Origin: Candidatus Omnitrophota bacterium
GTDB taxonomy: Bacteria > Omnitrophota > Gorgyraeia > Gygaellales > Profunditerraquicolaceae
Length of the DNA stretch: 64,000 nt
Assembly (NCBI GenBank): GCA_028717245.1
Contig: JAQUOD010000001.1
Location: 149,514-213,513, forward strand
Direction of reading: 5' to 3'
This document shows, piece after piece, positions 27,702-57,695 of the stretch. Both the position numbers and the translations under genes were made by a program. Within the stretch, counting starts at the first letter, position 1, and every line of letters starts with the position of its first letter. The notes beneath the pieces are model-generated. The model worked only from the letters and a program-made list of their open reading frames with translations, searched no databases and was not told the DNA's origin.

Positions 27702-27702
27702 T

Positions 27703-38524: not shown

Positions 38525-38531
38525 CTGTGCT

Positions 38532-40608: not shown

Positions 40609-40647
40609 AGTAACCTTATCTGTTTACTATATTAACTTATTGCATCT

Positions 40648-41211
40648 TTAGAGACTTATTGATCCATAGGTTTTAATAAATTCTTTAAAACTCTTTGCAG
40701 CTGTGTCTCTTTCGGATATAATATGGTTTCTATTTAAAGGCCAATCGATATCTAAATCCAGATCATTCCATTTAATAATACCTTGGCTTTCAGGATTATG
40801 GTAATTATCCATTTTATATAAAACAACGCAACGGTTAGTTAATGAACACATCCCGAGAGCAAAGCCCCGCGGAACATACAACATTTTCTTATTATCTGCT
40901 GAAAGAATTATGCCTTCCCATTCGCCAAAAGTAGAAGATTTTTTTCTTAAATCCACAAATACCTTAAACACTTTTCCCTGCACAACTCGAATAAGCTTGG
41001 TCTCTGAATACGGAGGAAATTGAAAATGCAGTCCTCTTATCGTACCTTTTTTCTTAGAATAAGAATGATTTTCCTGAACCCACTTTCGTTGTAACCCATA
41101 TTTCTTAAACACCTTTTCATCATATGTCCTCATAAAGAACCCCCGCCGGTCTTTTTGAGGTTCTAGTTCAATTTCAAACACTCCCTTGATTTCTTTTTCT
41201 TTTATCAACAT
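40648..41211 (-). CDS. RmlC-like cupin (nucleotide-sugar 3,5-epimerase or keto-isomerase)
   Basis: The motif GVFEIELEPQKDRRGFFMRTY...RGLHFQ is typical of dTDP-4-dehydrorhamnose 3,5-epimerase-like proteins. The length is 187 aa. Confidence 0.75.
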   Translation of the reverse strand: MLIKEKEIKGVFEIELEPQKDRRGFFMRTYDEKVFKKYGLQRKWVQENHSYSKKKGTIRGLHFQFPPYSETKLIRVVQGKVFKVFVDLRKKSSTFGEWEGIILSADNKKMLYVPRGFALGMCSLTNRCVVLYKMDNYHNPESQGIIKWNDLDLDIDWPLNRNHIISERDTAAKSFKEFIKTYGSISL

Positions 41212-41234
41212 ATTATTAGCTATTATCTTACAGA

Positions 41235-42215: not shown

Positions 42216-42227
42216 TTTAAGAATTAT

Positions 42228-43469
42228 TTAATTAACTTTTAATAAATATGGCTTTTTGGGAAAAGGGATCAAATAATCCCTCTTATATCCATTTAGCTGG
42301 CAATCTGCAATTATTTCATCTTTAAAATTCCAGGCTAATATAAATAGCAGATCGGGTTTGATTCTAAGCCCCTCCTCTATTGACAGTATCGGGATTGAAG
42401 AACCGGGGGAATAAAGCCCTTGTTTTAATCTATTGTTATCAATTATTGCTCGAATATCAGAATTTGTAAAACCGCAAAAGTTTAAATAAGTAGCGCTTCT
42501 CGCCGAAGCCCCGAAACCTACTATTGCTTTACCGCGAAATGCTTTTATTATCTTCCTCGATTCTTTTCTGTGCTTTTTGCATTTGTCTGCAAAGTTTTGC
42601 CAAGATTTTAATTTATTTACCGATAGTCTCTTTTCTTTATCCACCAACTGATTATATCTTAAACTCTTTTTCCGCTTATTCTTTGAGAAATACATCACAT
42701 AGGAACCGCCGCTGATAGGACTGAGGTCAATACGAAACGGAAATAAATTGAATTTATTAAGTAAATACTCCATAGTCTTAATTGAAAAATAACACAGGTG
42801 TTCATGGTATATTGAATCGTAATGTAAATCCTGCAGGATTTTTCCAGCGTAATGAAACTCAATAATGCCTATCCCGTCTTTTGCCAGACATCTGTGGATA
42901 CTGCGAATCACATCAGTAAGGTCGCTGACATGCGGAATAACATTCCTGGCAATAACTACTTTTGCTTCGCCGTAATTAGATTTTATTTGACCCGCCATCT
43001 TATGATCCCAATATCTATTTAGTGTTTCTATCCCGGACTTTTTAGATAACCCGGCAATATTTTTTGCGGGCTCAATCCCTAATACCCTATATCCTCCTTT
43101 TACAAAAGGCTTAAGAAAAGTGCCATCGTTAGAGGCAATCTCTACAATTAGCTCCTCTGGTTTAGCTTTTGTTAACCCAATTGTTCTTTTATAAAAAGTT
43201 TCTGCGTACTTTTGGGTTGTTTCAGATATTCCGGTAACCCAAACATAATTATTAAACAAAATTTCCTTCTTCAGTGTTTCTTTTAATTGAACCAATGAAC
43301 AGTTTGGACAAAAAACTAATGTTAAAGGATATCTCCTTTCTAAATCGCTAATCCTTTTTTTAAATGAATTAGCCAAGGGTTGATTACCCAAAAAAAGCAA
43401 AGGAACAATATCTTTAGACCCGCAAATCCTACAATTCTTAATCCGCTTGTATTCTTTATCTAGAGCCAT
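42228..43469 (-). CDS. NDP-sugar C-methyltransferase-like class I SAM methyltransferase with an N-terminal zinc-ribbon and a C-terminal C-methyltransferase domain
   Basis: The N-terminus is CRICGSKDIV...CPNCSLVQ (4-Cys). A central class I domain follows. The 413-aa length and architecture match TylC3/EvaC-type sugar C-methyltransferases. Confidence 0.65.
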   Translation of the reverse strand: MALDKEYKRIKNCRICGSKDIVPLLFLGNQPLANSFKKRISDLERRYPLTLVFCPNCSLVQLKETLKKEILFNNYVWVTGISETTQKYAETFYKRTIGLTKAKPEELIVEIASNDGTFLKPFVKGGYRVLGIEPAKNIAGLSKKSGIETLNRYWDHKMAGQIKSNYGEAKVVIARNVIPHVSDLTDVIRSIHRCLAKDGIGIIEFHYAGKILQDLHYDSIYHEHLCYFSIKTMEYLLNKFNLFPFRIDLSPISGGSYVMYFSKNKRKKSLRYNQLVDKEKRLSVNKLKSWQNFADKCKKHRKESRKIIKAFRGKAIVGFGASARSATYLNFCGFTNSDIRAIIDNNRLKQGLYSPGSSIPILSIEEGLRIKPDLLFILAWNFKDEIIADCQLNGYKRDYLIPFPKKPYLLKVN

Positions 43470-44499
43470 TTAACCAGTTTAAATTCTTATCTATCTTTTT
43501 TTCTCTAAGAAGATATTCCATCTGCTTAAGCCTATTACAGGCTTTTCCTCTGAATTGCTGCTCGCTAAAATTATTTTTCTTAAAAAACTCAATGAGCTCC
43601 TTGCCTCCTTTATCTAAATCGCATTCTGGATAAAAATATTCGCCTAAGACATTAAATATTTTCTTAAAACTTATTTTATAAGTTCGCGCATCCGTTCCGT
43701 GCTCACCGGTGAATACCAGGGTACTACCGGGAACAACCTGTTGCGCTGCCTCAGCGAGCTGACGGATAGTAAAGTTGCCGTTCTTAATCCCGATATTAAA
43801 GGACTCGCCTGAGATTAAATGCTGGGGTGCCCTTAACCCAGCGATGAATGCCTGTGACGCATCCCTTACGTGAATGACAGGCCGCCAAGGGGTCCCGTCA
43901 CTTTTAATTTCAATTTTACCCGTAGTATATGCGCAGGCAACCAGGTTATTGAATACGATATCGCAACGAAACCTGGGGCTAGGGCCAAATACAGTAGAAG
44001 GGCGCATGCAAACTACCGTAAAATCACTGGAATTCAAATTTTTTAATTCACATTCGGCATCCCATTTGGTTCTGGCATAAGCAGTTAAAGGGTTCTTCGT
44101 ACTTTTATCCTCATCTAACTCTTCATCCGTATTAGAGATACCATACATACTCTGAGATGAAGCATAGACAAACCTTTTAATGCCTGCTTTTTTTGCGTAA
44201 TTAGCTAATTTCATTGTCCCTTTAAAATTTATCTCTTCTGTCAGGTACGGATCCAACTGGCCCAGGGGGTCATTAGAAAGTGCTGCTAAATGGATTATCG
44301 CATCTATCCCATCTAAATCTTCAGTGCTTACATCCCGGATATCCTTTTTTTTCTGTTTTATCGGCTGATGCAATGCGCAGATTTCAGAGCCGGCATAATA
44401 ATCCGTATCATATCCGGTAACGTTATATCCAAGCCCCAATAGCATTTCTGTTAATACTGCTCCGATATAGCCCCTATTACCGGTTACCAAGATATTCAT
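43456..44499 (-). CDS. NAD-dependent nucleotide-sugar epimerase/dehydratase (extended SDR)
   Basis: The sequence has ILVTGNRGYIGAVL and the YARTK YxxxK motif. The length is 347 aa. Confidence 0.8.
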   Translation of the reverse strand: MNILVTGNRGYIGAVLTEMLLGLGYNVTGYDTDYYAGSEICALHQPIKQKKKDIRDVSTEDLDGIDAIIHLAALSNDPLGQLDPYLTEEINFKGTMKLANYAKKAGIKRFVYASSQSMYGISNTDEELDEDKSTKNPLTAYARTKWDAECELKNLNSSDFTVVCMRPSTVFGPSPRFRCDIVFNNLVACAYTTGKIEIKSDGTPWRPVIHVRDASQAFIAGLRAPQHLISGESFNIGIKNGNFTIRQLAEAAQQVVPGSTLVFTGEHGTDARTYKISFKKIFNVLGEYFYPECDLDKGGKELIEFFKKNNFSEQQFRGKACNRLKQMEYLLREKKIDKNLNWLNGSR

Positions 44500-44508
44500 C
44501 TACAAGCT

Positions 44509-44516
44509 CCCCCCCC
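44509..44516. repeat. Homopolymeric C8/G8 tract. It lies on the minus strand in the Shine-Dalgarno position of the CDS at 43456-44499.
   Basis: The minus-strand read is ...AATGGGGGGGGAGCTTGTAG-ATG. G8 is unusual in sequence of about 35% GC. Confidence 0.85.
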
Positions 44517-44531
44517 ATTAGAAACATTATT

Positions 44532-45077
44532 TTATTTATAGTCTTTTGCTATAGCTATTTTTTCAACTACAGCAGTCAACCAGATATTATGAACCGACTC
44601 TACGATATTATAAACCTTACTATCAACCCAGAAATTAATATCCCCCATCTTTCTCAAGGGATTATCGGCATTAAACCCGGATAAGGTAATCAGGTTAGCT
44701 CCCAGTTTTTTAGCTTTCTGCGCCGCATTAATAATATTCTGGGATTCTCCGCTGCTACTTATCAAAATTACGGCGTCGTCCTTATCCGCGTAACATTCAA
44801 TAGCCCGCTCCAGCCATTTCTCGTACCCATAATCATTGGCAAAACAAGTAATCAAATCCGCCTCATTAAAGTTTACTGAACGCACCTTGGCATTTTTAGT
44901 CAAATCAACGGATATGTGGCTGGCTATCGCTGCGCTCGCCCCGTTACCGGATATTATTACTTTCTTTCCTCTTTTATTTACGCTTAATATTAAATCAACG
45001 GTCTTATTTAAAAGCCCGGTATCTACACTATTTAATCCCTGGTTAATTTGATTAAAATAATCCTTAAAAAAGTCCAT
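44532..45077 (-). CDS. SIS-domain sugar-phosphate isomerase (GmhA-like sedoheptulose-7-phosphate isomerase)
   Basis: The motifs VIISGNGASAAIASHISVDL and ILISSSGESQNIINAA are typical of GmhA. I place the start at the internal ATG (45077) to avoid an 83-nt overlap. Confidence 0.75.
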   Translation of the reverse strand: MDFFKDYFNQINQGLNSVDTGLLNKTVDLILSVNKRGKKVIISGNGASAAIASHISVDLTKNAKVRSVNFNEADLITCFANDYGYEKWLERAIECYADKDDAVILISSSGESQNIINAAQKAKKLGANLITLSGFNADNPLRKMGDINFWVDSKVYNIVESVHNIWLTAVVEKIAIAKDYK

Positions 45078-45081
45078 CTGC

Positions 45082-45837
45082 TCACCGTCCTTTAAAATAA
45101 TTATTGGGAATAGACTCAAAGCCTCTTTCGGCAACTGCCGATTCAAAATTTTTAAGGCTATCAAGATTAGTAATATAGTAGTATTGTTTATCGGTAAGAT
45201 AGGCCGTAAGCTGCTTTTTTAAAATCAGCCGGGGAAGGATATGCTCTTCAAAGGATATATTTTCATTTATGCCAAGGTTTAAAATATTTTTATTCACAAT
45301 AAAATAACCGATATCAACACCATTGAGGCCGCTGGATTTTCTGCTCTTATTATAAGCCCTGACAAGTTTATCTTTTCCTACGCTGATATTATTTTCATAA
45401 CCGTATTCTCCGGTTCCTCTTTTATTGGTAAATACGGTTGTCAGGACTTTGGTCTTTTTTTCATCGTATAAATTCAACATCTGCTTCAATTCCATCGGCC
45501 AATAATTATCACCGTAAAGAAGTAAAAAATAATTATCCAATAAGCGGCGGGCGTTCAATAGCCTCCTGCCGGTCTGGTCTTCGGCTCTTCCGGGAAAACA
45601 TTCGATTTCTATTCCTTCATGGGCCAATTTCTCGTATCTTTTAATAATAGCCTCTCCCTTATAACCCGTTAATATCAAAATATGCTTAATCCCGGCCTGG
45701 ATTACGGAATTAATCAGGTAATCCAAAAACGGGGCTCCATTAACAGCAACTAAAGGCTTGGGGATTTCATCCGTTAACGGCCTTAATCTTTCTCCTCTGC
45801 CGCCGGCTAATACAACAGCTTGATTTAACTTAATCAT
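45082..45837 (-). CDS. Sugar-1-phosphate nucleotidyltransferase (HddC/GmhD-like)
   Basis: The motif AVVLAGGRGERLRPLTDEIPKPLV is the G-loop of NTP-transferases. I place the start at the internal ATG (45837). Confidence 0.75.
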   Translation of the reverse strand: MIKLNQAVVLAGGRGERLRPLTDEIPKPLVAVNGAPFLDYLINSVIQAGIKHILILTGYKGEAIIKRYEKLAHEGIEIECFPGRAEDQTGRRLLNARRLLDNYFLLLYGDNYWPMELKQMLNLYDEKKTKVLTTVFTNKRGTGEYGYENNISVGKDKLVRAYNKSRKSSGLNGVDIGYFIVNKNILNLGINENISFEEHILPRLILKKQLTAYLTDKQYYYITNLDSLKNFESAVAERGFESIPNNYFKGR

Positions 45838-46531
45838 ATCCCTTAAAAAATTCTGCCAGCTTAAGATGAAAATTATCATCAATGTCTATGGACCTTTCTT
45901 TAGGCATTACATAAGCAAAGGTCTTGTTTCCCATAAACCCTTTTTGGCGTATTATATAATCACAAAAACCCACATAAACTGCTCCATTAAGCCGATAAAA
46001 TAACGGTAATTCCTGCCTATTCTTATTTCTAGCCTTGGGATTAATAAAGCCTTTCATGCATCCATTCTTTGGTAATGTATTTGTCCAGTTTAGAGGGTAA
46101 TCTATTCCGCATACCGAAACTATGGCTTTTGCGTTCTTTGAAAAAAGAAACCTTATCGCTCCATCGATATCTTTGGTTGACCTTAAGGGAGATGTCGGCT
46201 GCAACAGAATAAGCAAGTCATAAACTTTCTGGCCATTCTTTTTTAACCATTTCAATGTATGTAGAATATAATCAATGGCTTTGCTGTTATCTACTGCGAA
46301 CTTTCCGGGCCTGAAGAACGGCACCTCGGCTCCGTATTTTTTAGAGATATCAGCTATTTCTTTATCTTCAGTTGAAACAATAATTCTATCTATGTATTTG
46401 CTTTTTCTTGCTTCTTCTATCGTCCACGCAATCAAGGGCTTTCCGGATAGAGGTTTTATATTTTTTCGCAAAACCCCCTTACTTGCGCCTCTAGCAGGAA
46501 TTAAAGCCAATATTTTCTTTCCTTTATACAT
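45830..46531 (-). CDS. Acylneuraminate cytidylyltransferase-family CMP-sugar synthetase (NeuA/LegF-like)
   Basis: The motifs ILALIPARGASKGVLRKNIKPLSGKPLI and LQPTSPLR are present. The length is 233 aa. Confidence 0.8.
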   Translation of the reverse strand: MYKGKKILALIPARGASKGVLRKNIKPLSGKPLIAWTIEEARKSKYIDRIIVSTEDKEIADISKKYGAEVPFFRPGKFAVDNSKAIDYILHTLKWLKKNGQKVYDLLILLQPTSPLRSTKDIDGAIRFLFSKNAKAIVSVCGIDYPLNWTNTLPKNGCMKGFINPKARNKNRQELPLFYRLNGAVYVGFCDYIIRQKGFMGNKTFAYVMPKERSIDIDDNFHLKLAEFFKGYD

Positions 46532-46545
46532 TTGCCTAAAATTTC

Positions 46546-47625
46546 CTATTCTATAATTTTTAACTTCTCAATTGCCTTTTTATATTCTTCCCAATGCCCG
46601 ATATCGATATATTCGCTTTCGTTGACCGGATAAGTTATAACCTTCTTATTATTTTCAATTAAAGTTTTTATTAAATCAGTCATATCAAAATATGAATTTT
46701 TAGGAATAAACCGCAGGGATTCTTTATTTAATATATAAACTCCCGTATTAATCGTGAAGGTATACTCCGGTTTCTCAATGGTTTCCGTAACCTCTCCCCC
46801 CTCTTTAAATCTTATCACGCCATATGGGACCTTATAATGTTGTATGGAGGATAAGATTGTCAGTAGCGCTTTTTGTTCTTTATGCAAATTCAATACTTCT
46901 TCGAAGTTCGCTTCAACGATTACATCACAATTTGAAAGAATAAAATTATCGCAGATCTTTCCTTCCATAAGTTTCAGGCTGGCTGCGGTCCCCGAATATT
47001 CGCTGTCCCAGACATAATGCACGGCATAATCTTTTTCTATGCTGTCAAAATACGATTCTATCATTTTGCCTTTATAATTTAAGGTCAGGTAATATTCATT
47101 AATCCCACTCCTGCGGAATTTATCTATGATAATCTCAATAATCGGTTTCTCGCCGATAGGAATCAGGGCCTTAGGGAAAATATTGCTAAACGGCTCCAGC
47201 CGCGTACCCTTGCCTCCGGCCATAATCACTGCGGGGACGCTGACTTTACCGATATTGAAAAGCCCCTGGCTGCCGTCAGAGAACGCCTTATCCCAGGTTA
47301 TAAAATCTATTACCCGCTCTGCCTTATCTGTTATCGGGATAAGATCTATTTTATTTTTGATGAACATTTCCCTCGCTTCTTCTATGGAGAAGGCATCTTG
47401 ATTTATAAATATCGGCTTCTTATTATAGATATCCCTGATATTTCCTTCCAGGCTTTTGCCCTTTAATATATACCGCCTGATATCACCATCGGTGATTGTG
47501 CCCAGCAGCTTGTCTTTCTTGTCTACTACCGACAGGACTTTCGTTGCAGTCTTATCTAATTTCTTTAAGGCATCTTTTATAGACTCATCCTCTTGGATTA
47601 AGATATTTTTCGTTAACATACGCAT
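46546..47625 (-). CDS. CBS-pair domain fused to a sugar-1-phosphate nucleotidyltransferase (PtmE-like)
   Basis: An N-terminal tandem CBS region (...GTITDGDIRR...) is followed by the NTP-transferase G-loop VIMAGGKGTRLEPFSNIFPKALIPI. The length is 359 aa. Confidence 0.7.
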   Translation of the reverse strand: MRMLTKNILIQEDESIKDALKKLDKTATKVLSVVDKKDKLLGTITDGDIRRYILKGKSLEGNIRDIYNKKPIFINQDAFSIEEAREMFIKNKIDLIPITDKAERVIDFITWDKAFSDGSQGLFNIGKVSVPAVIMAGGKGTRLEPFSNIFPKALIPIGEKPIIEIIIDKFRRSGINEYYLTLNYKGKMIESYFDSIEKDYAVHYVWDSEYSGTAASLKLMEGKICDNFILSNCDVIVEANFEEVLNLHKEQKALLTILSSIQHYKVPYGVIRFKEGGEVTETIEKPEYTFTINTGVYILNKESLRFIPKNSYFDMTDLIKTLIENNKKVITYPVNESEYIDIGHWEEYKKAIEKLKIIE

Positions 47626-47633
47626 CTCCTCTA

Positions 47634-49022
47634 TTAAAGGTGCCGAAAGCCCCTAAAATTAACGTCTCTGTCTATATGCAGTTTCCTATTTTGCTCCATT
47701 GCCTCGCTAAGTTTCTTTTGGAAATAAAACTCTAATAACCTGTTATTCGCCTCATATAAACAGCGGTAAAATTCATCGTCGCTCATATCCGTAAAATTTA
47801 CCGCTAATAAGTCCGTATTGAGATGCTTATTTTCGTAAAAATCTTCGCAGTCCTTAATCAGGCCTTTTTCAATGGCATAATAATAGAGGGGGCTGCCCGG
47901 ATAAGGCGTTACCGGACGGATAGTCCGCATTTGAGCCCCGTCGCTATATTTCAATAAAAATTCAACTCCCTTTTTTAAGGTTTCCTGATTATCGCCGATA
48001 TTACCAAAAATTATATTTAAGCCTGGGCTTATCCCGGATTTTAGCGTAGCCTCAACCCCCCTGATTATCTGGTCAGTCGTCAATCCCTTATGCATATTCT
48101 TTAAAACATCATTATCCATCGCTTCGATACCATAGTTTATGAATACGCACCCGGCTCTTTTCATTAAATTCAGCACTTCGGGTGTGGCATAATTTAACCT
48201 GCCGTTACAAGACCACTTTACTCCCACATTATCCCTTATGAAATCTTCGCATAAGCGCATTGTCCTTTCTTTAGAGGACATGAGCAGTTCGTCGGAAAAC
48301 GCAATATAAGTTATGCCGTACATTCTTTTTAAAAACATGATTTCATCAATAATGCCTTTGCTGCTGCGCGACCTGAATCCCGTATCCATGCGGTAACAAA
48401 ATGTGCATTTAAAAGTGCATCCCCTGCCGGATAGTACAGATATAACAAAATCCGTTCTGGAGGCATTGGGCATTCTCGCCAAACGGTAATAATCCATGGG
48501 AAAAAGCTCATAGGCCGGAAAGGGTATTTTATCTATATCTTCTATCAGGGGCCTCCTCTCATTAATCACCGCCTTATCCCCGTCTAAATACGCTATCCCC
48601 TTAATCTTGGATAAAGACTGTTGATGCCTAACTGCATCAAGCAACTCCACAACGGTTATTTCTCCCTCGCCGATAACAACGGCATCCGCCTTGGTTTTCT
48701 TAAGGTAAAATTCCGGCTCAGGCGAGGGGCCGTGGCCGCCGATAATGTAAAATGGCCGGTTTACCGAGTTGTTTATTGCCTGCGAAAGGCCTAAAAGTTT
48801 CCTATACTGGTAATATCCGCCTACAATACCCAAGCCGATGATATCAAATTTATTCTGGTCCAAGTATTCGGTAAGGTGGCTGTCCGGATAATGGAATTTA
48901 TCCTGGTTGTATATTTTAACTTCGTGCCCTTCTTTTATGAGTACCGCGGCAATATAAGCTAAGCCTTGCGGCAGCCTATGCATATATGAATCGTCATCGT
49001 AAGCTACTAATAATACTTTCAT
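47634..49022 (-). CDS. B12-binding domain radical SAM protein, paralog 5 of 6. It is a close paralog of 57716-59098.
   Basis: The radical SAM motif is GCTFKCTFCYR. The N- and C-termini are alignable by eye with 57716-59098 (MKVLLVAYDDDS.../...NFRGFRHL versus MKILFVLYDNES.../...SFRGTRH). Confidence 0.8.
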   Translation of the reverse strand: MKVLLVAYDDDSYMHRLPQGLAYIAAVLIKEGHEVKIYNQDKFHYPDSHLTEYLDQNKFDIIGLGIVGGYYQYRKLLGLSQAINNSVNRPFYIIGGHGPSPEPEFYLKKTKADAVVIGEGEITVVELLDAVRHQQSLSKIKGIAYLDGDKAVINERRPLIEDIDKIPFPAYELFPMDYYRLARMPNASRTDFVISVLSGRGCTFKCTFCYRMDTGFRSRSSKGIIDEIMFLKRMYGITYIAFSDELLMSSKERTMRLCEDFIRDNVGVKWSCNGRLNYATPEVLNLMKRAGCVFINYGIEAMDNDVLKNMHKGLTTDQIIRGVEATLKSGISPGLNIIFGNIGDNQETLKKGVEFLLKYSDGAQMRTIRPVTPYPGSPLYYYAIEKGLIKDCEDFYENKHLNTDLLAVNFTDMSDDEFYRCLYEANNRLLEFYFQKKLSEAMEQNRKLHIDRDVNFRGFRHL

Positions 49023-50206
49023 AACCCTTGCCTCTCTTTATTTTTAACAGGGATATCGTAAAACTCTTTCTTGATGATATTTTTCAGGCCGTAATTCTTA
49101 AGGATCTTCTTAATCCTAGGTGCTGTTTTTCCGTCGCCATAGGGATTAGCAACTCCCCTAAGCATACTTTGGAATTTTCTGCTGTATAACTTCCTTATGG
49201 CATTAGTTATCTCTTTTTTTATGGGCCGACAATCTATGATACTTTTGGCCTTAATTCTGCCTTTCTGCCTATCCCCTATATTTATGGTCCCGATTTTAAA
49301 ACTGGGGGCCTCTATGATACCGCTTGAGGAATTACCCACTATGGCATCGACAAATTGCATTGTGGATAGATACAGGCGTTGCCCCATTGAGGTAAATGCA
49401 ACAGCCTTAGAGGAATTCTTTGCTACATATTCATCAATCAGCTTATTAATTATTCTTCCATCCATATCAGCATTTGCCTTAGTAAAGATAAGGGCTGTCT
49501 CCCTCAATTCATCCAAAGATTGAAGCAAACTACGAAATTGTGCTCCTGAAGTATTATTTTCCAGAGTAACCGGATGATAAGTAATTAATAAATTATGTTT
49601 ATTAAATTTAAAATGCAGTTCTTGTTCTATCGCCTTTTTTGACAAAAGCCTCAGTTTTTTTAGATTATCTAATCCCAGTGCCCCTACCTTAAAGACCCTC
49701 ACAGGGTATTCGCCCAATTGGATAACCCTTCTTCTATATTCTTCGGCAGAAGTAAAATGTAAATGGCTCATTTTGGTTATCGCATGCCTGAATGCCTCAT
49801 CAATGACGCCGAATGTCGCTTCTCCGCCATGAATATGGGCAATAGGGATTCTCAATACCAGAGCTGCAACCGCAGCAGAAAAGGCCTCAAACCTATCCCC
49901 AACAATAACGATTATATCCGGCCCTAAGGCCTTAAATGCCTTAGAAAAACTGATCAGCCCTGCCCCCACGGCCCTGCTCAATCCGAATGGGGTATCAGAA
50001 TTAAGCGAAATACCTACTTTTTTATCTATCTTAAAACCGTCCTTTTCGATTTCTTTATAGGTTGATCCGAACTCTGGCAATAAATGCATGCCGGAAACAA
50101 CAAGCTGCAGCTTTAAGGCAGGATCGTTCTTTATAACAATTAGTAAAGGCCTTAAAATACCGTATTCTGCCCTTGTTCCGGTAAAAACGCAGATTTTTCT
50201 TTTCAT
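49019..50206 (-). CDS. UDP/GDP-N-acetylhexosamine 2-epimerase (hydrolysing), NeuC/LegG-like
   Basis: The N-terminal motif ICVFTGTRAEYGILRPL and the overall 395-aa length match NeuC-family enzymes. Confidence 0.85.
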   Translation of the reverse strand: MKRKICVFTGTRAEYGILRPLLIVIKNDPALKLQLVVSGMHLLPEFGSTYKEIEKDGFKIDKKVGISLNSDTPFGLSRAVGAGLISFSKAFKALGPDIIVIVGDRFEAFSAAVAALVLRIPIAHIHGGEATFGVIDEAFRHAITKMSHLHFTSAEEYRRRVIQLGEYPVRVFKVGALGLDNLKKLRLLSKKAIEQELHFKFNKHNLLITYHPVTLENNTSGAQFRSLLQSLDELRETALIFTKANADMDGRIINKLIDEYVAKNSSKAVAFTSMGQRLYLSTMQFVDAIVGNSSSGIIEAPSFKIGTINIGDRQKGRIKAKSIIDCRPIKKEITNAIRKLYSRKFQSMLRGVANPYGDGKTAPRIKKILKNYGLKNIIKKEFYDIPVKNKERQGL

Positions 50207-51207
50207 AATTCTATTAATGAATCCTTTTTAAAAAAAAATTTTGCCATCCTGCCGATTACATCATCCCATTTCATCGGATTTAAACCAGAGGCAGGCCTTT
50301 TAGTTGTAATATTAGCTGCAGTAAAATATTCTCCCTTACTGATATTTCTTGCTGCGACTATGCTTTTACGGGCTATTATTTTATTCTTGCGTTCTGAGCA
50401 AGATGCTTTTTTGATTCCGTTACCAAGGGCCTTTTCTATATTTCTTATCCCATTTATCATTGCCTTAAGTTCTTTCGGTTCCAAAGATGCCTTATGGTCA
50501 GGACCTTTCATATTTCTATCCAGGGTAAAATGTTTCTCTATCACAAATGCGCCCAGGGCTACTGCGGCTATAGGAACCTCAATACCGATAGTATGGTCGG
50601 AATAGCCTACCCTAACCTTAAAAGCCTCTTTTATCGTGAGCATAGCGCGTAGATTGGCATCTTCAAAGGGAGTCGGATATTCGGTATTACAATGGAGTAA
50701 TGTTATTTTTTCTTTTGCCGTCCCCGCCTCAGTAAGCACATCCAGCGCGTTTTTTATCTCGCGTAGGTCCGACATACCGGTTGAAAGTATAATTTTTTTC
50801 TTCAATCTCCCGATCTTTCTCAAATATGGAAGATTGGTAATTTCCCCCGAGGGGATCTTAAACATATTAATACCGAGCTTATCCAATAGTTCAATGCTTT
50901 CTAAATCAAAAGGTGATGATAAAAATATAATCTTTTTTCTTTTACAGTAATGCATAAGCTCTTTATGGGCATCGAACGTTAATTCTAATTTCTTTATCAT
51001 TTCAAATTGAGATTCTTCCTTATCAGTGGTTTTCTTTTGGTATTCAGCCTTAGGGGCAAGCTTGGTCAGTAATCTATCGGCTTTAAATGTCTGGAATTTT
51101 ACCGCATCGGCCCCTGCTTCTACAGCTATATCAATCATTCTTTTAGCTGTTTTAATGCTCCCGTTATGGTTTACGCCTGCCTCTGCAATAATAAAAGTTT
51201 TACCCAT
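50203..51207 (-). CDS. NeuB-family nonulosonic acid synthase (LegI/NeuB-like) with a C-terminal SAF domain
   Basis: The N-terminus is FIIAEAGVNHNGSIKTAKRMIDIAVEAGADAVKFQTF. The length is 334 aa. Confidence 0.9.
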   Translation of the reverse strand: MGKTFIIAEAGVNHNGSIKTAKRMIDIAVEAGADAVKFQTFKADRLLTKLAPKAEYQKKTTDKEESQFEMIKKLELTFDAHKELMHYCKRKKIIFLSSPFDLESIELLDKLGINMFKIPSGEITNLPYLRKIGRLKKKIILSTGMSDLREIKNALDVLTEAGTAKEKITLLHCNTEYPTPFEDANLRAMLTIKEAFKVRVGYSDHTIGIEVPIAAVALGAFVIEKHFTLDRNMKGPDHKASLEPKELKAMINGIRNIEKALGNGIKKASCSERKNKIIARKSIVAARNISKGEYFTAANITTKRPASGLNPMKWDDVIGRMAKFFFKKDSLIEL

Positions 51208-51215
51208 AATAAGTC

Positions 51216-51875
51216 TTATCTATTAGCATTATATTCAAACTTATGGCCATACAATTCTATGTACGCCCCGGGCATACCAGGATAGGCAGTCGCCTTTACG
51301 CGTTTTTTTATCTCTTCCTGCGGCATAGCCGCTTCTATTCGGCATAATTCCTCTAATTCTGAGCGAGTATAGGGCTTCCTCTTCCATGTTTCGTTAGAAA
51401 AAGGAATGATATTTTTAGTGAGAATAGAGTCCATAATTTCATAAAATAAAGTGTACATACATTCGTAACTTTTTATACTTAGGGTATATACGGAATCATT
51501 TCTTAACATTGAGAATCTTTTAACCGCGATTATTTTACCGCTATCGACATTCTTTTCCATTAAATGGGCGGTAATGCCGTAATACTTTTCTTGATTGTAT
51601 ATGGCAAAATTAAAACAGCCTATACCCGGATACTCTGGCGGGCCAGGATGAAAGTTTATACTCCATAATGCTGTTTTATTTAAAATTTGCTCCGGAATTA
51701 GCCACGGAGACAAATAAGAGATTAATATATCCTGAGAGCCGTTGAGCGCCTCTAGAGGAATAGATTCTCCTCTTTCCCCTTCATAGATAGCTACAGTATC
51801 AAAGTTTTTCTTTAAGTATTCTTTCACTTCATTAACTGTGGGTTTATCCGGTTTAGTAAACAGAGCGATTTTCAT
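51216..51875 (-). CDS. Formyltransferase-family protein (putative sugar N-formyltransferase)
   Basis: The motifs SINFHPGPPEYPG and GITAHLMEKNVDSGKI match the formyl_trans_N core blocks. The length is 219 aa. Confidence 0.55.
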   Translation of the reverse strand: MKIALFTKPDKPTVNEVKEYLKKNFDTVAIYEGERGESIPLEALNGSQDILISYLSPWLIPEQILNKTALWSINFHPGPPEYPGIGCFNFAIYNQEKYYGITAHLMEKNVDSGKIIAVKRFSMLRNDSVYTLSIKSYECMYTLFYEIMDSILTKNIIPFSNETWKRKPYTRSELEELCRIEAAMPQEEIKKRVKATAYPGMPGAYIELYGHKFEYNANR

Positions 51876-51882
51876 ATTAATA

Positions 51883-52974
51883 TTAAAGCGATTCTTTTAT
51901 AATCTTACATATATAGCGTATATCGTTTTCAGAATTTAGCGTCGAACTCGGCAAGCATAAGCCTTTTTCGTAAATATAGCGAGAATTATCGTAACGTCCT
52001 TGTCTATATTTTTTATATGGAGGGAACTCTGTCACGGGCATAAAGATCCTACGCGTGGGAATTCCCTTTACACTTAATTTTCTCCTTAATATTACTATGT
52101 CAACTTTATCACCGAAAGTAATGCAGGTGAGCCAAGAAGAGCTATCTGCCCCCTCGTACTCGTCTTGAAAACGGATATTTCTGATTCCCTTCATTTCATT
52201 TCGGTAAATAGCCTTAAATCTCTTTTTCTTGGCAAGGAACCCATTCAATCTCTTTAATTGCGCCAGGCCTAAAACCGCTTCTATATTAGTCATTCTGTAA
52301 TTGAAGCCGACTTCAGGATAGAAATACCCCCTTGACTCATCCCGAGCTTGGTTTACTAAAAACTTTATGTGTCCTAATCTCTTTTTGCTATTCCCCACTA
52401 CCATACCGCCGCCACCCGTAGTTATTATTTTATTTCCGTTAAAGCTAAAACAACCCAAATCTCCATATGTCCCTGTATATTTTCCTTTATATTTTGCCCC
52501 GAGGCTCTCGGTAGCATCTTCTATCACATAAATATTGTATTTGCGTGCGATTTTCATTATTTCATCCATATTACAGGGATTACCGTAAAAATGGACAGGT
52601 ATTATTGCTCTGGTCTTTTTGGTTATTTTTTTTTCAATCTTTTCAGGAGATATGTTCCAGGTTCTTATATCCACATCTACAAAAACCGGCTTTGCCCCTA
52701 CATATATAACAGGGTTTACTGTAGCGATGAAGGTCAGATTCGGAACAATTACTTCGTCTCCTTTACCTATCCTAAGCTCATATAAGGCGATATGCAGGGC
52801 AGCTGTACCGCTCTGCGTTGAAACGGCTTTTTTTGTCTCCAAATATTTAGCAAATTTTTCTTCAAATTCTGAAACATAAGGCCCGTATGTGGAAATGAAT
52901 CCTTTATCAATAGTTGTATTAATATAATTTTTCTCCAAGCGGCCAATATTAGGGGCGTCTAGTTCAATAAACAC
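51883..52974 (-). CDS. DegT/DnrJ/EryC1/StrS-family PLP sugar aminotransferase (LegC/PseC-like)
   Basis: The sequence has the FSFNGNKIITTGGGGM lysine region. The length is 363 aa. Confidence 0.9.
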   Translation of the reverse strand: MFIELDAPNIGRLEKNYINTTIDKGFISTYGPYVSEFEEKFAKYLETKKAVSTQSGTAALHIALYELRIGKGDEVIVPNLTFIATVNPVIYVGAKPVFVDVDIRTWNISPEKIEKKITKKTRAIIPVHFYGNPCNMDEIMKIARKYNIYVIEDATESLGAKYKGKYTGTYGDLGCFSFNGNKIITTGGGGMVVGNSKKRLGHIKFLVNQARDESRGYFYPEVGFNYRMTNIEAVLGLAQLKRLNGFLAKKKRFKAIYRNEMKGIRNIRFQDEYEGADSSSWLTCITFGDKVDIVILRRKLSVKGIPTRRIFMPVTEFPPYKKYRQGRYDNSRYIYEKGLCLPSSTLNSENDIRYICKIIKESL

Positions 52975-53966
52975 TCTTTCTCTCCTAAGTCTGGCGAAGT
53001 ATTGTAGTACTTTTTATCCTCGGGGTTATTAATTAGGCCTGACTTCAATAAATTAAGAACTTCCTTTACTCCGTCTACAACTGTGAATTCCTTTCTAATG
53101 TTTAATAACCTTCGAAGCTTTGAAAAATCTACCTTATAATCCCTTAAATCATACCCACTTTTAACTAATTCTATTTTAGTTTCCGGCATAAATGTTTTAA
53201 CAATTTGGGCGATCTGTATCTTCTGATAATTCTCTTCATTGAAACCCAGGTTAAAAACATTATTCTTGACCCTTTCAAAATCTTTAACCATTTGGATAAT
53301 TATCTTGGCGGCATCAACCACATGAATATAGGGCCTTTGACTGTAAGGAAGAAAAATATCCAAATATTTCTTGGTGTGGGCATTCATCGTGAAATCATTT
53401 ACGGTCAAATCAAACCTCATTCTTGGCGAATAACCATATACGGTAGAAAGCCGGCAGATAACCCAATCTAAATTTTTAACCTTATCCAATAAATGCCTCT
53501 CCACTCCTACCTTTGTTTCTGCATATAAAGAAAGGGGCTTTAAGGGCGATTCCTCGTTTGCCATGCCTTGCGAGACTCCGTAGTTAGAACAGGTTGATAA
53601 AAATATGATGCCGGTAGCTTCTGATTTCTGAATTTTTTCTATTAACCGTATAGACATATCATAATTAATAAGGCGAGTTAATACGGGAAATTTTTTGCTC
53701 GCAGGGTCCCCCACTACTGCAGCTGCGTGGATAATAATATCTATGTCCTTTAAGAATCCATCCAGCAATTCCTCCCTGCATAAATCCTCTCTTATAAATT
53801 CATAATTAGGATTATGGGAATACTCTAAAGGAACTTCCTTATCAAACCAAAGATGGTCAACTACCCTTACTTTAAAATTATTACGCAGGGATAAATCTGC
53901 AATTACTGAGCCGATATATCCGGCTCCGCCAGTTATTAAGATCCTTTTTTTTAGATTTGTCCCCAT
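52959..53966 (-). CDS. NAD-dependent nucleotide-sugar 4,6-dehydratase/epimerase (LegB-like candidate)
   Basis: The sequence has ILITGGAGYIGSVI and the YAETK YxxxK motif. The length is 335 aa. Confidence 0.75.
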   Translation of the reverse strand: MGTNLKKRILITGGAGYIGSVIADLSLRNNFKVRVVDHLWFDKEVPLEYSHNPNYEFIREDLCREELLDGFLKDIDIIIHAAAVVGDPASKKFPVLTRLINYDMSIRLIEKIQKSEATGIIFLSTCSNYGVSQGMANEESPLKPLSLYAETKVGVERHLLDKVKNLDWVICRLSTVYGYSPRMRFDLTVNDFTMNAHTKKYLDIFLPYSQRPYIHVVDAAKIIIQMVKDFERVKNNVFNLGFNEENYQKIQIAQIVKTFMPETKIELVKSGYDLRDYKVDFSKLRRLLNIRKEFTVVDGVKEVLNLLKSGLINNPEDKKYYNTSPDLGEKECLLN

Positions 53967-53978: not shown

Positions 53979-55856
53979 TTAATTAACCTGATGCGCCGTT
54001 TGACTTGATAATGTTAATTCGTACAGATTATTTCTCAATCTTTCCAGGGCCTTATCATCATCAAAGGCATCGTATTCTCTTATTTCTTTCTCACTGATGA
54101 CATCTCGGCAAGTAAATCTTCCGTTTAAAATATCATTCAATTGCTTAAACAGAAGGTCTTTATCCTCAAATACAAATATGTTTTCATATTTCTTGGCGAA
54201 GGGATGGCATTTATTGCCTGTATTATCAAAATAAAGGGCGTTTTTACCGCATATCAATGCTACTGTTGACGGGCTGTTTAATCCCATACTTACACATACA
54301 TCCGAAACAGCCAAAGCTTCCTCAAAACCAAATTCTAAAGGGTTCAAATAGAAAAAGTTAGTGCAACTTGTCAAGCCATCATATATTTTTCTATATTCAG
54401 CAGCTCTCTCCCCCAGATATCTTAAGACTATTTGTTTATCAACTTTTGGTTTTAACAAAACATTGATACCCTTATTATTTCTACAGAACTCTTTTATTAT
54501 TTCCAGATATCTAAGAAAAAAACTGCTGGTAAGATGCAAGCTATCGTCAAAAGAATTATCAAAAAATGTCACTATTTTCCCCCCATTCTTGATATTAAGT
54601 TTTTGAGAAATAATTTTTTCTTTATTACCAATCGCCTGATTAAATTCCTGCTTAAATATGCATCCAATATTAATCTTGGTATCTATAAAAGTATACGCCG
54701 AGTGAAAATCATAATGTATGTCGCTCCAGGTAAAATAAATATTATGCGCGCAGAAGGCATAGCTGTATCCTTTAAAAGCGGTTAAATCGCTCCAGTTGAA
54801 AATAGTATTTTTTGCGCCATATTTGTTTAGAATAATTGTTGTTACATTATCATCGTAGTTTATTGATGAAATATTGTATTTTATCCTGTATGAATTCATT
54901 AATACTTCAATGGGAAAACACCTTTTATGGAATAAAAATATATAATAGAATAGGTATGATTTTTTGTTTAAGAGCAATCGTAAGTAAGTTGCTAAAGGTA
55001 GTAAAAAATAGAAGGACAAAATATCAAAAATATTTTTGTTGATATTAATCCTTAATTCCGGCACAGAAACAGTATCAAAACCTCTTTTATTTGCTTCTTT
55101 AAAAAAATTATCAACTCGGTCTTGGTATCGGTTATTAAATTCCAATATTAACAAATCGCTTTTCTTAAATTTAATATTATCTACCACGATATCATCCCTT
55201 AGTGTCTTTTGGTAGAACCCTGATGCAGCTTCTTTGGATATTTTATAGTCCTTTATACTTTTGTTAAAAACCACCCCCCTTCTAATGAATTCTATAAATA
55301 ACCATCCGTAATATAAGCATAGAAAAAACGGTTCCCACAAAAGAAATACATGCTTTATCTTATATTTAACTCCGTATTTTGCTTCCATGTATCCAAGCAT
55401 AAAATCATTAATAGGGTTTTTACTGATCAGTATAGCTCTCTCTTTTAAACCAGATAACCTCACTGAATGCAAACTCTTTAATAAGATAAACACATGGTTT
55501 GAAATTTCCCTCTTTATATATGCTTCAAATTTGTCTGTATTAAGAATTCTATTGTAATAGCTAATGACTTTATTATCATTTCCAATTATTTTATTGTAAA
55601 AATTATTAGTTAAATCCACTGTTTCCGCGTGAATTTCATATATTAAACCCTCATAATCTTCTAAACATGTTTTATATTCTTTAACTGATTTTTTAACATA
55701 TCCCCTGACAAAAGGAATAAGGTTTATGCACGGGGGTATTTGAGAACCGATTATTGTCAAGCAATGATTCCTGATCCAGCACCATAAAATAATATTCAAA
55801 TTTTCAAACTCGTTTCTTCCGAATAAAGCGATATAATTTTTTCTAATGCTTAGCAT
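53979..55856 (-). CDS. Orphan 625-aa protein with a TagB/TagF-like GT-B C-terminal motif. It is a paralog-like relative of 23705-25516 and 55860-57695.
   Basis: The C-terminal segment is SDVCVSMGLNSPSTVALICGKNALYF (D-x-h-h-[ST]-x-x-x-S-[ST]...GK-x-h). Confidence 0.4.
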   Translation of the reverse strand: MLSIRKNYIALFGRNEFENLNIILWCWIRNHCLTIIGSQIPPCINLIPFVRGYVKKSVKEYKTCLEDYEGLIYEIHAETVDLTNNFYNKIIGNDNKVISYYNRILNTDKFEAYIKREISNHVFILLKSLHSVRLSGLKERAILISKNPINDFMLGYMEAKYGVKYKIKHVFLLWEPFFLCLYYGWLFIEFIRRGVVFNKSIKDYKISKEAASGFYQKTLRDDIVVDNIKFKKSDLLILEFNNRYQDRVDNFFKEANKRGFDTVSVPELRININKNIFDILSFYFLLPLATYLRLLLNKKSYLFYYIFLFHKRCFPIEVLMNSYRIKYNISSINYDDNVTTIILNKYGAKNTIFNWSDLTAFKGYSYAFCAHNIYFTWSDIHYDFHSAYTFIDTKINIGCIFKQEFNQAIGNKEKIISQKLNIKNGGKIVTFFDNSFDDSLHLTSSFFLRYLEIIKEFCRNNKGINVLLKPKVDKQIVLRYLGERAAEYRKIYDGLTSCTNFFYLNPLEFGFEEALAVSDVCVSMGLNSPSTVALICGKNALYFDNTGNKCHPFAKKYENIFVFEDKDLLFKQLNDILNGRFTCRDVISEKEIREYDAFDDDKALERLRNNLYELTLSSQTAHQVN

Positions 55857-55859: not shown

Positions 55860-57695
55860 TTACTTCCCATTATGCTGAAAAACGCAGCATTCTAACTTAG
55901 AATACAAAGAACTATCTGACAATTTAATATCTACTTGATATTGTTTACCATCGGACTCCAGAAAATCTTTAATAAGCGGCTTAATATCATTAAATTCTTG
56001 GAATGTAGTGAGGCTTTTACCAAAGAATTCTCTGGCGCCTTTCCTAATGGAAAGGCCTTCCCTAACAAAAGCTAATACCGGAATCTTATTTACTGCTGCC
56101 TGGTAAAAGGAAGAGCTTGGATTGTCGGTTAAAAACATATCGCAATTTTTCAAATTTGTTAATAAGGAATCCATCCTAGCAGAAACATTTGTAAACTTTC
56201 TGGTTGTAATATATTTATAAATTGGGCTTATATTCCCGCTATTTAATGTCGGCAGGCCTTTCCAGATAAAATCATAATCGGTTAACGTAGACAGAAAATC
56301 TATCAATTGTAATTGAAATCTGTAATACCATGTGGATGTATATTCAGCCCCGTCCAGCCTGTTTATTGTTTCCTGAAAAAAGCCCGGCGCATAAAGTATT
56401 CTTTTCTTCCTTTTATTAATAGATTTACGCCTTATCCGCGATAACTTTAACCAATCAACATTAATCATAATTTTGGTCTGATACCCCCTACGCTTAGTTA
56501 CCATTTCAAAATATTCTTTCCCTTCATCGTCATTGGCGAAAAAAATATCTGCAAAACGAAGCTCTGTTATATCCCACATTAAATTTGCGAAAACATTACC
56601 TCCATGGCAGCCGGAGACATTTGTAATACTAGCACTGTTTTTCCCCAGATGCACCAGGGCCTCGTTTACCGTTAAGTTATTCAGGTAAGGATAAATAATA
56701 TACTTAAGATTAACTTTTTCTGTAAAAGACAAAAGGGTATCATAAAATGCGGTTAACTTAGGAATATAACTCTCAAAAAGATAATCTATGCGCGGTTTAA
56801 TCAGGTTTTTAAAATCGATACCGCAGAGTTCTTTCCAGGTGTCAAAAATAAAGTCTGAAATCATACTTTTCTCACGTGGCGGATTAAAAGTCTTATTTAT
56901 CAAAAAATCTATTTCTATCTTTGCGCTTGGTGAATACCTATAAATCTTTTCATCTTCCTTTTTTATAAAAACATTCCAACCGTTTTTATAGAAATCCTTA
57001 ATCCACAGCCTTACCCCATAATCAGTCCCTATAAAAAGAACTGATTTGTTGGCATGGATTTTTGACCTGCCATTTAGCTTGCATTTAATTCCGGTCAATA
57101 AACTATCTATTGCAAAGCGTAACTGCCGCACAATAACCTTAGTTTTTCCAGAACAAGGCACTCTTTTCCTCAATCCGGGAGAAGGCAATAGATGATTAAT
57201 AATTTTTATATCCTTATTTTTACAAATAACCGGCAATACATGATAAAATACTGAATTATCTACCATATAAATCCTATCATCAATATATTCTTTAAAATTA
57301 TAGCCATAATATACTATTGACTTACAAGAAAATTTATCGAGTATTTTCTCTATAAGTTTTGTATAAATATAAATGGGGTCAAGCAGCAACCTTAAATTAT
57401 AGAAAAGAAGATCGCCTATTTCTAAATTTCTAGCTTTAACCTCGGCTATTTCTTTAAAAACCCTATTTAATTCTTGAGAAATTAACAACTCTGTATTAAA
57501 TAATTTCTCCGACATCCGATAGAAAACGGTTAATTCTGATTCAGACAGGCAATCTTCAAGAATTAGGTAGGATATATTTCTCCTACCTAATTCAAAACAT
57601 ACATCAGGATTTAAAGCTACTATTTTTAAGCCGCCCGCCATGAGGTCCCTATCAAACCTCTCAGCAAAAATAAGCGTAGTAGTATTATTTACCAT
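55860..57695 (-). CDS. Orphan 611-aa protein with a TagB/TagF-like GT-B C-terminal motif
   Basis: The C-terminal segment CDMFLTDNPSSSFYQAAVNKIPVLAF closely matches the DxLITDYSS...KP[IV] signature of CDP-glycerol glycerophosphotransferases. Confidence 0.45.
   Translation of the reverse strand: MVNNTTTLIFAERFDRDLMAGGLKIVALNPDVCFELGRRNISYLILEDCLSESELTVFYRMSEKLFNTELLISQELNRVFKEIAEVKARNLEIGDLLFYNLRLLLDPIYIYTKLIEKILDKFSCKSIVYYGYNFKEYIDDRIYMVDNSVFYHVLPVICKNKDIKIINHLLPSPGLRKRVPCSGKTKVIVRQLRFAIDSLLTGIKCKLNGRSKIHANKSVLFIGTDYGVRLWIKDFYKNGWNVFIKKEDEKIYRYSPSAKIEIDFLINKTFNPPREKSMISDFIFDTWKELCGIDFKNLIKPRIDYLFESYIPKLTAFYDTLLSFTEKVNLKYIIYPYLNNLTVNEALVHLGKNSASITNVSGCHGGNVFANLMWDITELRFADIFFANDDEGKEYFEMVTKRRGYQTKIMINVDWLKLSRIRRKSINKRKKRILYAPGFFQETINRLDGAEYTSTWYYRFQLQLIDFLSTLTDYDFIWKGLPTLNSGNISPIYKYITTRKFTNVSARMDSLLTNLKNCDMFLTDNPSSSFYQAAVNKIPVLAFVREGLSIRKGAREFFGKSLTTFQEFNDIKPLIKDFLESDGKQYQVDIKLSDSSLYSKLECCVFQHNGK

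Follow-up and report, generated by a model that had tools for sequence, protein, structure and literature searches.

A legionaminic-type gene module of Candidatus Omnitrophota with a predicted sugar N-formyltransferase in the N-acetyltransferase slot

The stretch of DNA analyzed here, referred to as the window, comprises 64,000 nucleotides of contig JAQUOD010000001.1 (assembly GCA_028717245.1, positions 149,514 to 213,513 of the forward strand) from a Candidatus Omnitrophota bacterium. Eight open reading frames (ORFs) lie back to back on its minus strand at 45830-53966, and from their families and order the region very probably yields an N-formylated sugar by a legionaminic-type pathway, in which a 219-residue formyltransferase (FT) would replace the usual N-acetyltransferase. 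Read along the minus strand, the genes encode an extended short-chain dehydrogenase/reductase (SDR) in the position of LegB, a LegC-family aminotransferase, the FT, a NeuB-type synthase, a NeuC/LegG-type 2-epimerase, a B12-binding radical S-adenosylmethionine (SAM) enzyme, a nucleotidyltransferase with a pair of CBS domains (CBS-nucleotidyltransferase) and a cytidine monophosphate (CMP)-transferase. The SDR and LegC genes overlap by 16 nt, the NeuB and NeuC genes by 4 nt, and the NeuC and radical SAM genes by 4 nt, with gaps of 7-14 nt elsewhere; the eight genes would form one operon-like module. An original prediction made from the letters alone had listed eight genes here, and all of these ORFs are present, at exactly the positions it gave, with strong matches to Pfam and NCBIfam models, the predicted families having scores far beyond chance. 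In our reading, to which we give a probability of roughly 60%, the module would make a CMP-activated, N-formylated 5,7-diamino nonulosonic acid of the legionaminic (D-gluco-derived) series. The same locus is also found in a Candidatus Omnitrophica metagenome-assembled genome (Omnitrophota).

The main evidence comes from the position of the FT gene. Eighty FT loci were taken from species-representative genomes of more than 10 phyla, including archaea, and homologues of the window genes were placed in them by tblastn; with the sets described below, roughly 250 related loci were gathered in all. Among the 52 FT loci that were well flanked, meaning 4 kb or more to either side, 45 had NeuB, NeuC or LegC nearby, and the CBS-nucleotidyltransferase gene was syntenic in 26, as it also was in many loci of the radical SAM gene. 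Seven loci that carry the closest relatives of the FT, from Omnitrophota, Planctomycetota including Brocadia, Nitrospirota and others, have the order LegB-LegC-FT-NeuB-NeuC, and in these the first gene passes the LegB model TIGR04180 (476-508 bits, cutoff 475). As a control set we used FT-less Leg-type clusters, gathered via the radical SAM gene, seven of which have the order LegB-LegC-PglD/NeuD-NeuB-NeuC. A NeuD/PglD gene was present in 4 of the 33 FT-bearing nonulosonic loci versus 10 of the 19 control loci (Fisher p = 0.003); FT and NeuD/PglD are near-mutually exclusive in nonulosonic loci. The position in the slot, taken together with these statistics, provides the strongest support for the FT replacing LegH. 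Consistent with the original prediction, the FT holds the place of an N-acetyltransferase of the LegH/PseH kind, as backed by its position, by the near-exclusion of NeuD/PglD, and by the catalytic triad and fold described below. A scan of the 64-kb window found zero NeuD/PglD, GNAT or PIG-L genes. The sole hexapeptide protein of the window (13127-13702) was considered as the absent LegH and rejected, since it is of the LacA/MaaA/WcaF-like O-acetyltransferase type, reaches 68 bits with the NeuD model (TIGR03570, cutoff 161) and is encoded 38 kb away.

More than 870 homologues were found for the FT, and its conserved family has a length of ~219 residues. In the FT, residues N74, H76 and D111 align with N102, H104 and D140 of ArnA and are invariant in 19 diverse family members, so that the Asn/His/Asp triad on which the prediction of a formyltransferase depended is retained. 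An AlphaFold model built on the alignment of 19 homologues reached a predicted local distance difference test (pLDDT) score of 94.8, and in a Foldseek search against solved structures its best matches were all sugar N-formyltransferases (template-modeling (TM) score 0.78, E 6e-16). The top structural neighbors, Rv3404c, WbtJ, VioF and WbkC (TM 0.75-0.80, E ~1e-15), formylate the 4-amine of nucleoside diphosphate (NDP)-4-amino-4,6-dideoxyhexoses; ArnA and Met-tRNA formyltransferase rank below these sugar 4-N-formyltransferases. PseJ (6ci2) gave a marginal sequence match (E 1e-3, 22 bits) and was not among the top 50 structural matches of the model. By sequence and by modeled structure, the FT appears to lie outside the PseJ family.

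The gene in the LegB slot gave a different result. The original prediction had called its product an SDR dehydratase and had described the run as gene-for-gene like the GDP-GlcNAc route of Campylobacter jejuni, and both statements have to be corrected at this slot: with the LegB model the protein scores far below the cutoff (Table 1), it shares 18-21% identity with true LegB from related loci, and it belongs to another SDR family. Its best match in the PDB is 6vo6/6vo8 (E 5e-61, 40% identity over the full length), deposited as 'Putative sugar-nucleotide epimerase/dehydratease', and the next-best matches are 4-epimerases. Where LegB-type proteins have the motif T-S-T-S-E-V-Y-G, the window SDR has S-T-C-S-N-Y-G; the Asp/Glu dehydratase pair is absent and a conserved Cys (Cys126) is found instead. 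The family comprises 1,270 clusters at E <= 1e-30, and when 150 representatives were aligned the Cys was kept in 140 of 151 sequences and the next Ser in 149 of 151, with zero acidic residues there. The 6vo6 protein also lacks the Asp/Glu pair and has Asn at the position of the Cys. Family members occur fused to a DegT aminotransferase (P0395), to CBS domains and a CMP-transferase (P0357) and, in the proteins P0328 and P0396, to GNAT and CBS domains or to PglF-like Bac_transf and CoA_binding_3 domains, and in Chitinophaga the Cys-motif SDR stands in a bacillosamine-like layout. From these associations, the family clearly seems to supply 4-keto sugars to aminotransferases, including those of nonulosonic pathways, and perhaps it removes the 6-hydroxyl too, through the Cys. 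An N-terminal CBS pair is also present in many members of the Cys-motif family. For the window SDR, an AlphaFold model made from the one sequence reached a pLDDT of 42 and was too poor for use.

Whether the 6-hydroxyl is lost matters for the naming of the product, since an SDR that leaves it in place would leave a 9-hydroxyl in the sugar acid, which would then not strictly be legionaminic acid. It is quite conceivable, at somewhat less than even odds, that the SDR oxidizes C4 only, with no 4,6-dehydration, and that its NADH is recycled by 2-oxoglutarate from LegC; the product would be a 5,7-diamino-3,5,7-trideoxy acid, i.e., 7-formamido-7-deoxy-Neu5Ac, a core not yet described. The 40% identity to 6vo6 points this way, in that we tentatively take 6vo6/6vo8, in part from the depositor's molecule name, to be the C. 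jejuni C4-dehydrogenase Cj1427. Cj1427 is described as an enzyme without dehydratase activity that requires 2-oxoglutarate for turnover (PMC10680097, PMC9978623). The 4-epimerases among the next-best PDB relatives and the existence of SDR-DegT fusions fit the same view, as does the finding that neither of the two positions after the catalytic Thr is Asp or Glu. In every dehydratase class known to us, an Asp or Glu is found there. However, the near-invariant Cys of the family sits at the dehydratase Asp position, where 6vo6 has Asn, so the chemistry may differ from that of Cj1427; some family members are PglF-like (Bac_transf, CoA_binding_3 and SDR) or stand in bacillosamine-like layouts; and the LegC that works with the SDR has orthologues whose substrates are 6-deoxy sugars. 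The window SDR is at best 44% identical to any SDR of the fetched FT loci, whereas the window's LegC and FT are 60-71% identical to the copies in LegB-type clusters, and by these identities the window looks like a recombinant.

The remaining enzymes were compared with named families and solved structures. The DegT aminotransferase, which had been placed in a Leg-like route, is probably of the LegC family, with a score that stops just short of the model's cutoff. Its best PDB match is 7b0m (508 bits, ~66% identity), followed by GDP-perosamine synthases and PglE; 7b0m is ~60-63% identical to the LegC of all loci alike and sets no locus apart. Among the loci, window LegC is 63-71% identical to the LegC adjoining true LegB in four of them and ~37% identical to Bacteroidota counterparts. 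The NeuC-like hydrolyzing 2-epimerase was called correctly: it passes TIGR03568 well above the cutoff and is closest to LegG, with best PDB matches to 5zlr/5xvs, 'GDP/UDP-N,N'-diacetylbacillosamine 2-epimerase (hydrolyzing)', at 330 bits. The call of a NeuB-like synthase likewise stands, as the protein passes TIGR03569 and stays under the cutoff with PseI (319 bits, cutoff 340), with Pfam NeuB and SAF domains, and is of the Neu/Leg type and not of the PseI type; the PDB matches of NeuB do not set Leg, Neu and Pse synthases apart. The CBS-nucleotidyltransferase, PtmE-like by architecture, would supply an NDP- (probably GDP-) hexosamine.

These comparisons also bear on the idea that the module makes two products, with SDR, LegC and FT leading to an NDP-4-formamido hexose or heptose, and NeuC, NeuB and the cytidylyltransferase leading to a Neu5Ac-type acid from UDP-GlcNAc. 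We consider this improbable. In Chitinophagaceae an SDR/LegC-like/FT trio does occur without NeuB and NeuC, next to a PglC-like initiating transferase (L055 and others), and the one characterized relative of the SDR, if 6vo6 is Cj1427 as we assume, acts on GDP-heptose, for which genes lie directly downstream of the module (45082-45882, 44532-45164 and 41235-42215); TIGR03568 and TIGR03569, moreover, are named after Neu5Ac enzymes. Against these stand the 2-epimerase, far closer to LegG than to other solved 2-epimerases, and LegC, whose closeness to the LegB-paired LegC of complete Leg-type clusters contrasts with its distance from the Bacteroidota proteins. The PtmE-like CBS-nucleotidyltransferase is typical of Leg and not of Neu5Ac clusters, and a fusion of the SDR family with a CMP-transferase exists (P0357).

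In the single legionaminic-type pathway that we prefer, the CBS-nucleotidyltransferase would first provide NDP-, probably GDP-, glucosamine (GlcN) or N-acetylglucosamine (GlcNAc), the SDR would oxidize C4, and the LegC-type aminotransferase would place an amine there. The 219-residue FT, in the stead of LegH/PglD, would then formylate this 4-amine from N10-formyl-tetrahydrofolate. The LegG-type enzyme would free the nucleotide and epimerize C2, the NeuB-type synthase would add phosphoenolpyruvate, and the cytidylyltransferase would make the CMP-sugar, giving as the predicted product a 5-acetamido-7-formamido sugar acid. In proposing this route we infer the substrates, the nucleotide, the amine that is formylated, the deoxygenation of C6 (later C9) and the reaction of the radical SAM enzyme.

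Several observations weigh against this reading. As regards the families, the LegC score lies just under its cutoff (PseC reaching only 264 bits), the hidden Markov models used cannot tell LegI from a Neu5Ac synthase, and the best NCBIfam match of the CMP-transferase is PseF, at 156 bits with a cutoff of 206. As regards the sugar core, the SDR is not LegB, so that the route may give no 9-deoxy sugar and the name 'legionaminic' is provisional. As regards the formylated amine, the FT of Chitinophagaceae and some Planctomycetota carries a NeuD/PglD-family domain at its N-terminus or has one encoded next to it. Two such fusions (L054, 4221-5555; L039, 7281-8654) match TIGR03570 at 200-205 bits (cutoff 161) along with the FT models, and adjacent NeuD and FT genes are seen in full nonulosonic clusters too (L016). 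Two acyltransferases need two amines, which suggests that the target of the FT in these lineages is the 2-amine of the hexose, destined to become N5. In addition, a PIG-L deacetylase gene directly follows the FT gene in at least eight loci, an adjacency that suggests a pair acting together; it could reflect an acetyl-to-formyl swap at N2 or, equally, the creation of a free amine. As a separate observation, single-protein fusions of NeuD/PglB/VioB-family domains with the FT were seen in seven further loci, an architecture of which we know of no description.

The same pathway could accordingly be drawn with formylation by the FT at the 2-amine of the hexose, the later N5 of the sugar acid, and we hold this to be unlikely for the window. 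The CBS-nucleotidyltransferase would make GDP-GlcN, as PtmE of C. jejuni reportedly does, the FT would formylate GDP-GlcN in place of GlmU acetylation, and the amine that LegC places on C4 would either remain free or receive an acyl group from an enzyme whose gene lies elsewhere, giving a 5-formamido-7-amino (or 7-acyl) sugar acid. Besides the fused and adjacent NeuD/PglD-FT pairs and the FT-PIG-L gene pairs, two chemical identifications are consistent with it: 5-N-formyl-legionaminic acid in Halorubrum sp. PV6, whose cluster holds LegH, NeuD and a predicted FT (PMC6137143), and the sugars of Candidatus Kuenenia, in which one amine is free and one is formylated at a position that the preprint leaves unassigned (10.64898/2026.04.20.719630). 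Against it, the FT sits exactly in the LegC-to-NeuB slot of PglD, from which it largely excludes PglD in nonulosonic clusters, its best structural neighbors are 4-N-formyltransferases, and a deacetylase gene is absent from the window. A free 4-amine would, furthermore, have to be carried through the LegG and NeuB steps, for which we know of no precedent. Formylation at N4 of the hexose, i.e., at N7 of the sugar acid, is favored in the window by the position of the FT gene, by its near-exclusion of NeuD/PglD and by the structural resemblance of the FT to 4-N-formyltransferases.

The B12-radical SAM gene had been described as inserted into the run; the comparison shows instead that it recurs in Leg-type clusters of many phyla. 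The protein matches PF02310 (50 bits) and PF04055 (73 bits) and contains the CxxxCxxC core, whose residues C202, C206 and C209 are invariant in a 462-residue family with a mean column identity of 77% across phyla. Homologues with 64-79% identity occur in Omnitrophota, Nitrospirota, Thermodesulfobacteriota, Bacillota and Rhodospirillaceae, and a metagenome scan returned at least 592 relatives. In 25 of 29 metagenomic radical SAM loci with 4 kb or more to either side, NeuB, NeuC or the CMP-transferase was encoded nearby, and the FT in none of the 29; the gene often directly adjoins that for the CMP-transferase, and in a flagellin island of Bacillota the order is flagellins-LegB-LegC-PglD-NeuC-radical SAM-NeuB-CBS-nucleotidyltransferase-CMP-transferase. 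The gene thus accompanies Leg-type clusters time and again, with or without the FT and whichever type of SDR they have. We also considered that it deoxygenates the sugar in place of the missing LegB, and rejected this since the gene occurs mostly with a true LegB.

Within the proposed pathway, the radical SAM enzyme would introduce one more modification, on the hexose, the free acid or the CMP-sugar, a C-methyl group being the likeliest. Enzymes of the B12-radical SAM class usually methylate carbon, and by analogy this is plausible here. Named families were all far below their cutoffs, the best being BchE (143 bits, cutoff 481) and HpnJ, and the best PDB match was AprD4 (77 bits); BchE and HpnJ are non-methylases, and AprD4 is a diol dehydratase. 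No paper that connects radical SAM enzymes to nonulosonic, legionaminic or pseudaminic acids turned up in the searchable literature. CMP-activated ulosonic acids with a ten-carbon backbone have been reported in Magnetospirillum, and no biosynthesis was given (10.64898/2026.04.20.719630). The radical SAM gene is present in the magnetotactic strain LM-1 (L168); among the matches obtained with a query from Thalassospiraceae, only Rhodospirillaceae and strain LM-1 appeared and an orthologue of M. gryphiswaldense did not. A link to the C10 sugars of Magnetospirillum is speculative. In a broader version, which we regard as doubtful, the 462-residue family would be a widespread Leg-type tailoring enzyme that adds a backbone carbon or a C-methyl group, would make the C10 acids of Magnetospirillum and, in the window, would join the Cys-motif SDR and the FT in making a formylated, C-methylated new core. 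The window as a whole holds six B12-radical SAM genes (8128-9615, 19587-21896, 30517-31965, 36824-38524, 47634-49022 and 57716-59098), the second of which also encodes a fused class I methyltransferase domain, together with a single SPASM radical SAM gene (29507-30484); a similar crowding of B12-radical SAM genes is seen in a locus of Thermodesulfovibrionales (L085).

Table 1. The eight genes of the module and the family evidence for each; positions are those of the window
Predicted product	Position	Strand	Evidence
CMP-nonulosonic acid synthetase	45830-46531	-	Pfam CTP_transf_3, E 5e-22
CBS-pair sugar-1-phosphate nucleotidylyltransferase	46546-47625	-	Pfam CBS x2 + NTP_transferase, E 6e-35
B12-binding radical SAM enzyme	47634-49022	-	Pfam B12-binding + Radical_SAM
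Hydrolyzing NDP-sugar 2-epimerase, LegG/NeuC type	49019-50206	-	TIGR03568 (NeuC_NnaA) 486 bits, cutoff 236
Nonulosonic acid synthase, NeuB/LegI type	50203-51207	-	TIGR03569 (NeuB_NnaB) 517 bits, cutoff 400
Sugar N-formyltransferase (FT), 219 aa	51216-51875	-	Pfam Formyl_trans_N, E 2e-11
LegC-family pyridoxal phosphate (PLP) aminotransferase	51883-52974	-	TIGR04181 413 bits, cutoff 420
Extended SDR	52959-53966	-	LegB model TIGR04180 48 bits, cutoff 475

The module lies in a single co-directional glycan locus that runs from ~5,000 to the end of the window and includes an O-antigen-ligase-like gene, an initiating transferase, several glycosyltransferases and an ABC exporter. Its low-coordinate edge is marked by genes for SecG, triosephosphate isomerase and phosphoglycerate kinase, and it starts with the O-antigen-ligase-like gene and a GT4-family initiating transferase fused to a CoA-binding/PglD_N-like domain (282-2618 and 5026-8068 for edge and start together). 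Directly downstream of the module, 36102-45882 holds a second sugar pathway of the heptose type, with an HddC-like nucleotidyltransferase, an SIS isomerase, a GHMP kinase, an RmlC-like epimerase, a DegT aminotransferase, TylC3-like C-methyl- and CmcI-like methyltransferases, a B12-radical SAM protein, an SDR with the motif SSQSMYG, again without Asp/Glu, and a second formyltransferase-like protein of 286 residues (38532-39392); this would seem to be a pathway to a C-methylated, N-formylated amino-heptose. A second ulosonic-acid-like module at 57716-63991 encodes a KdsB-like cytidylyltransferase, a GFO/IDH/MocA oxidoreductase, a DegT aminotransferase, a B12-radical SAM protein, a 363-residue protein with merely a faint Epimerase_2 match and a NeuB homologue cut by the window end. 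At 25532-30484, two CTP_transf_3 cytidylyltransferases, an HpcH/HpaI-aldolase-like protein, a weak HAD-like protein, a class I/II aminotransferase and the SPASM radical SAM protein would make up a third CMP-linked pathway. Between the eight-gene module and that at 57716-63991 are genes for proteins of 625 and 611 residues (53979-55856 and 55860-57695), with a weak 'PFTS polysaccharide' motif as their sole Pfam signal; large unannotated proteins of this kind also flank the radical SAM gene in L085 and L168, and the two might transfer or polymerize the sugar acid.

Flagella, S-layers and capsules are decorated with nonulosonic acids, which influence phage and host recognition, and the detection of the diversity of these acids by mass spectrometry outpaces its linking to genes. 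The 219-residue FT, the Cys-motif SDR and the B12-radical SAM enzyme offer three gene markers for predicting sugar structures from genomes. If the SDR does not dehydrate, a new sugar core would result, and carbon methylation by the radical SAM enzyme, if it occurs, would account for the C10 ulosonic acids that have been reported. The host is uncultured, and we know of no description of Omnitrophota surface glycans.

Formyltransferases in such clusters have been reported before, and the FT idea has published precedents; the new elements are the Cys-motif SDR that stands where LegB is expected and the well-conserved B12-radical SAM enzyme that accompanies it, each of them widespread in the collections searched. 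The GDP-linked CMP-Leg pathway of C. jejuni, summarized in PMC6137143, consists of PtmE, LegB, LegC, LegH, LegG, LegI and LegF. The window shares with it the CBS-nucleotidyltransferase, a LegC-type aminotransferase, a LegG-type 2-epimerase, the NeuB-type synthase and the CMP-transferase in one co-directional cluster, and differs in having an SDR of another family for LegB, the FT for LegH and a B12-radical SAM enzyme in addition. For the SDR itself the comparison is with Cj1427, presumed as above to be 6vo6. Both lack the Asp/Glu dehydratase pair at 40% identity, whereas Cj1427 has Asn in place of the Cys, acts on a heptose and feeds epimerases and reductases, not an aminotransferase. Class B radical SAM enzymes, both the methylases GenK, Fom3 and CysS and the non-methylases AprD4, BchE, HpnJ and OxsB, have the same B12 domain and CxxxCxxC core as the window protein, which reaches none of the named families at cutoff. 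VioF, WbtJ, WbkC and Rv3404c share with the FT the two-domain fold, the Asn/His/Asp triad and a small size, but they are 17-21% identical to it, the FT is shorter in the N-terminal half, and their dTDP- or GDP-4-amino-4,6-dideoxyhexose substrates lie outside nonulosonic pathways.

The nearest systems are those in which a formylated nonulosonic acid has been described. PseJ (PDB 6ci2), the formyltransferase of Pse5Ac7Fo biosynthesis (PMC11040635), likewise takes the place of the N-acetyltransferase step, but it belongs to the pseudaminic (L-altro) series, unlike the series predicted for the window. Halorubrum sp. PV6, in which the formylated acid was chemically identified (PMC6137143), has a Leg pathway with a predicted formyltransferase, as the window does; there it is N5 that bears the formyl group, and LegH and NeuD are encoded in the cluster as well. 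In Candidatus Kuenenia, the CMP-nonulosonic acids with one free and one formylated amine are accompanied by +14 Da forms, and the preprint points to a Leg-like cluster with a deacetylase and a formyltransferase (10.64898/2026.04.20.719630). The gene content of a Candidatus Brocadia contig (L082) matches that description, with the order LegB-LegC-FT-NeuB-methyltransferase-NeuC-PIG-L-SPASM radical SAM-CMP-transferase-CBS-nucleotidyltransferase and an FT 62% identical to that of the window. These anammox clusters resemble the window in having an FT of the same family between LegC and NeuB, no NeuD/PglD and GDP-heptose genes nearby; they differ in their true LegB, PIG-L deacetylase, class I methyltransferase and SPASM radical SAM enzyme within the cluster, where the window has the 6vo6-like SDR and the B12-radical SAM gene.

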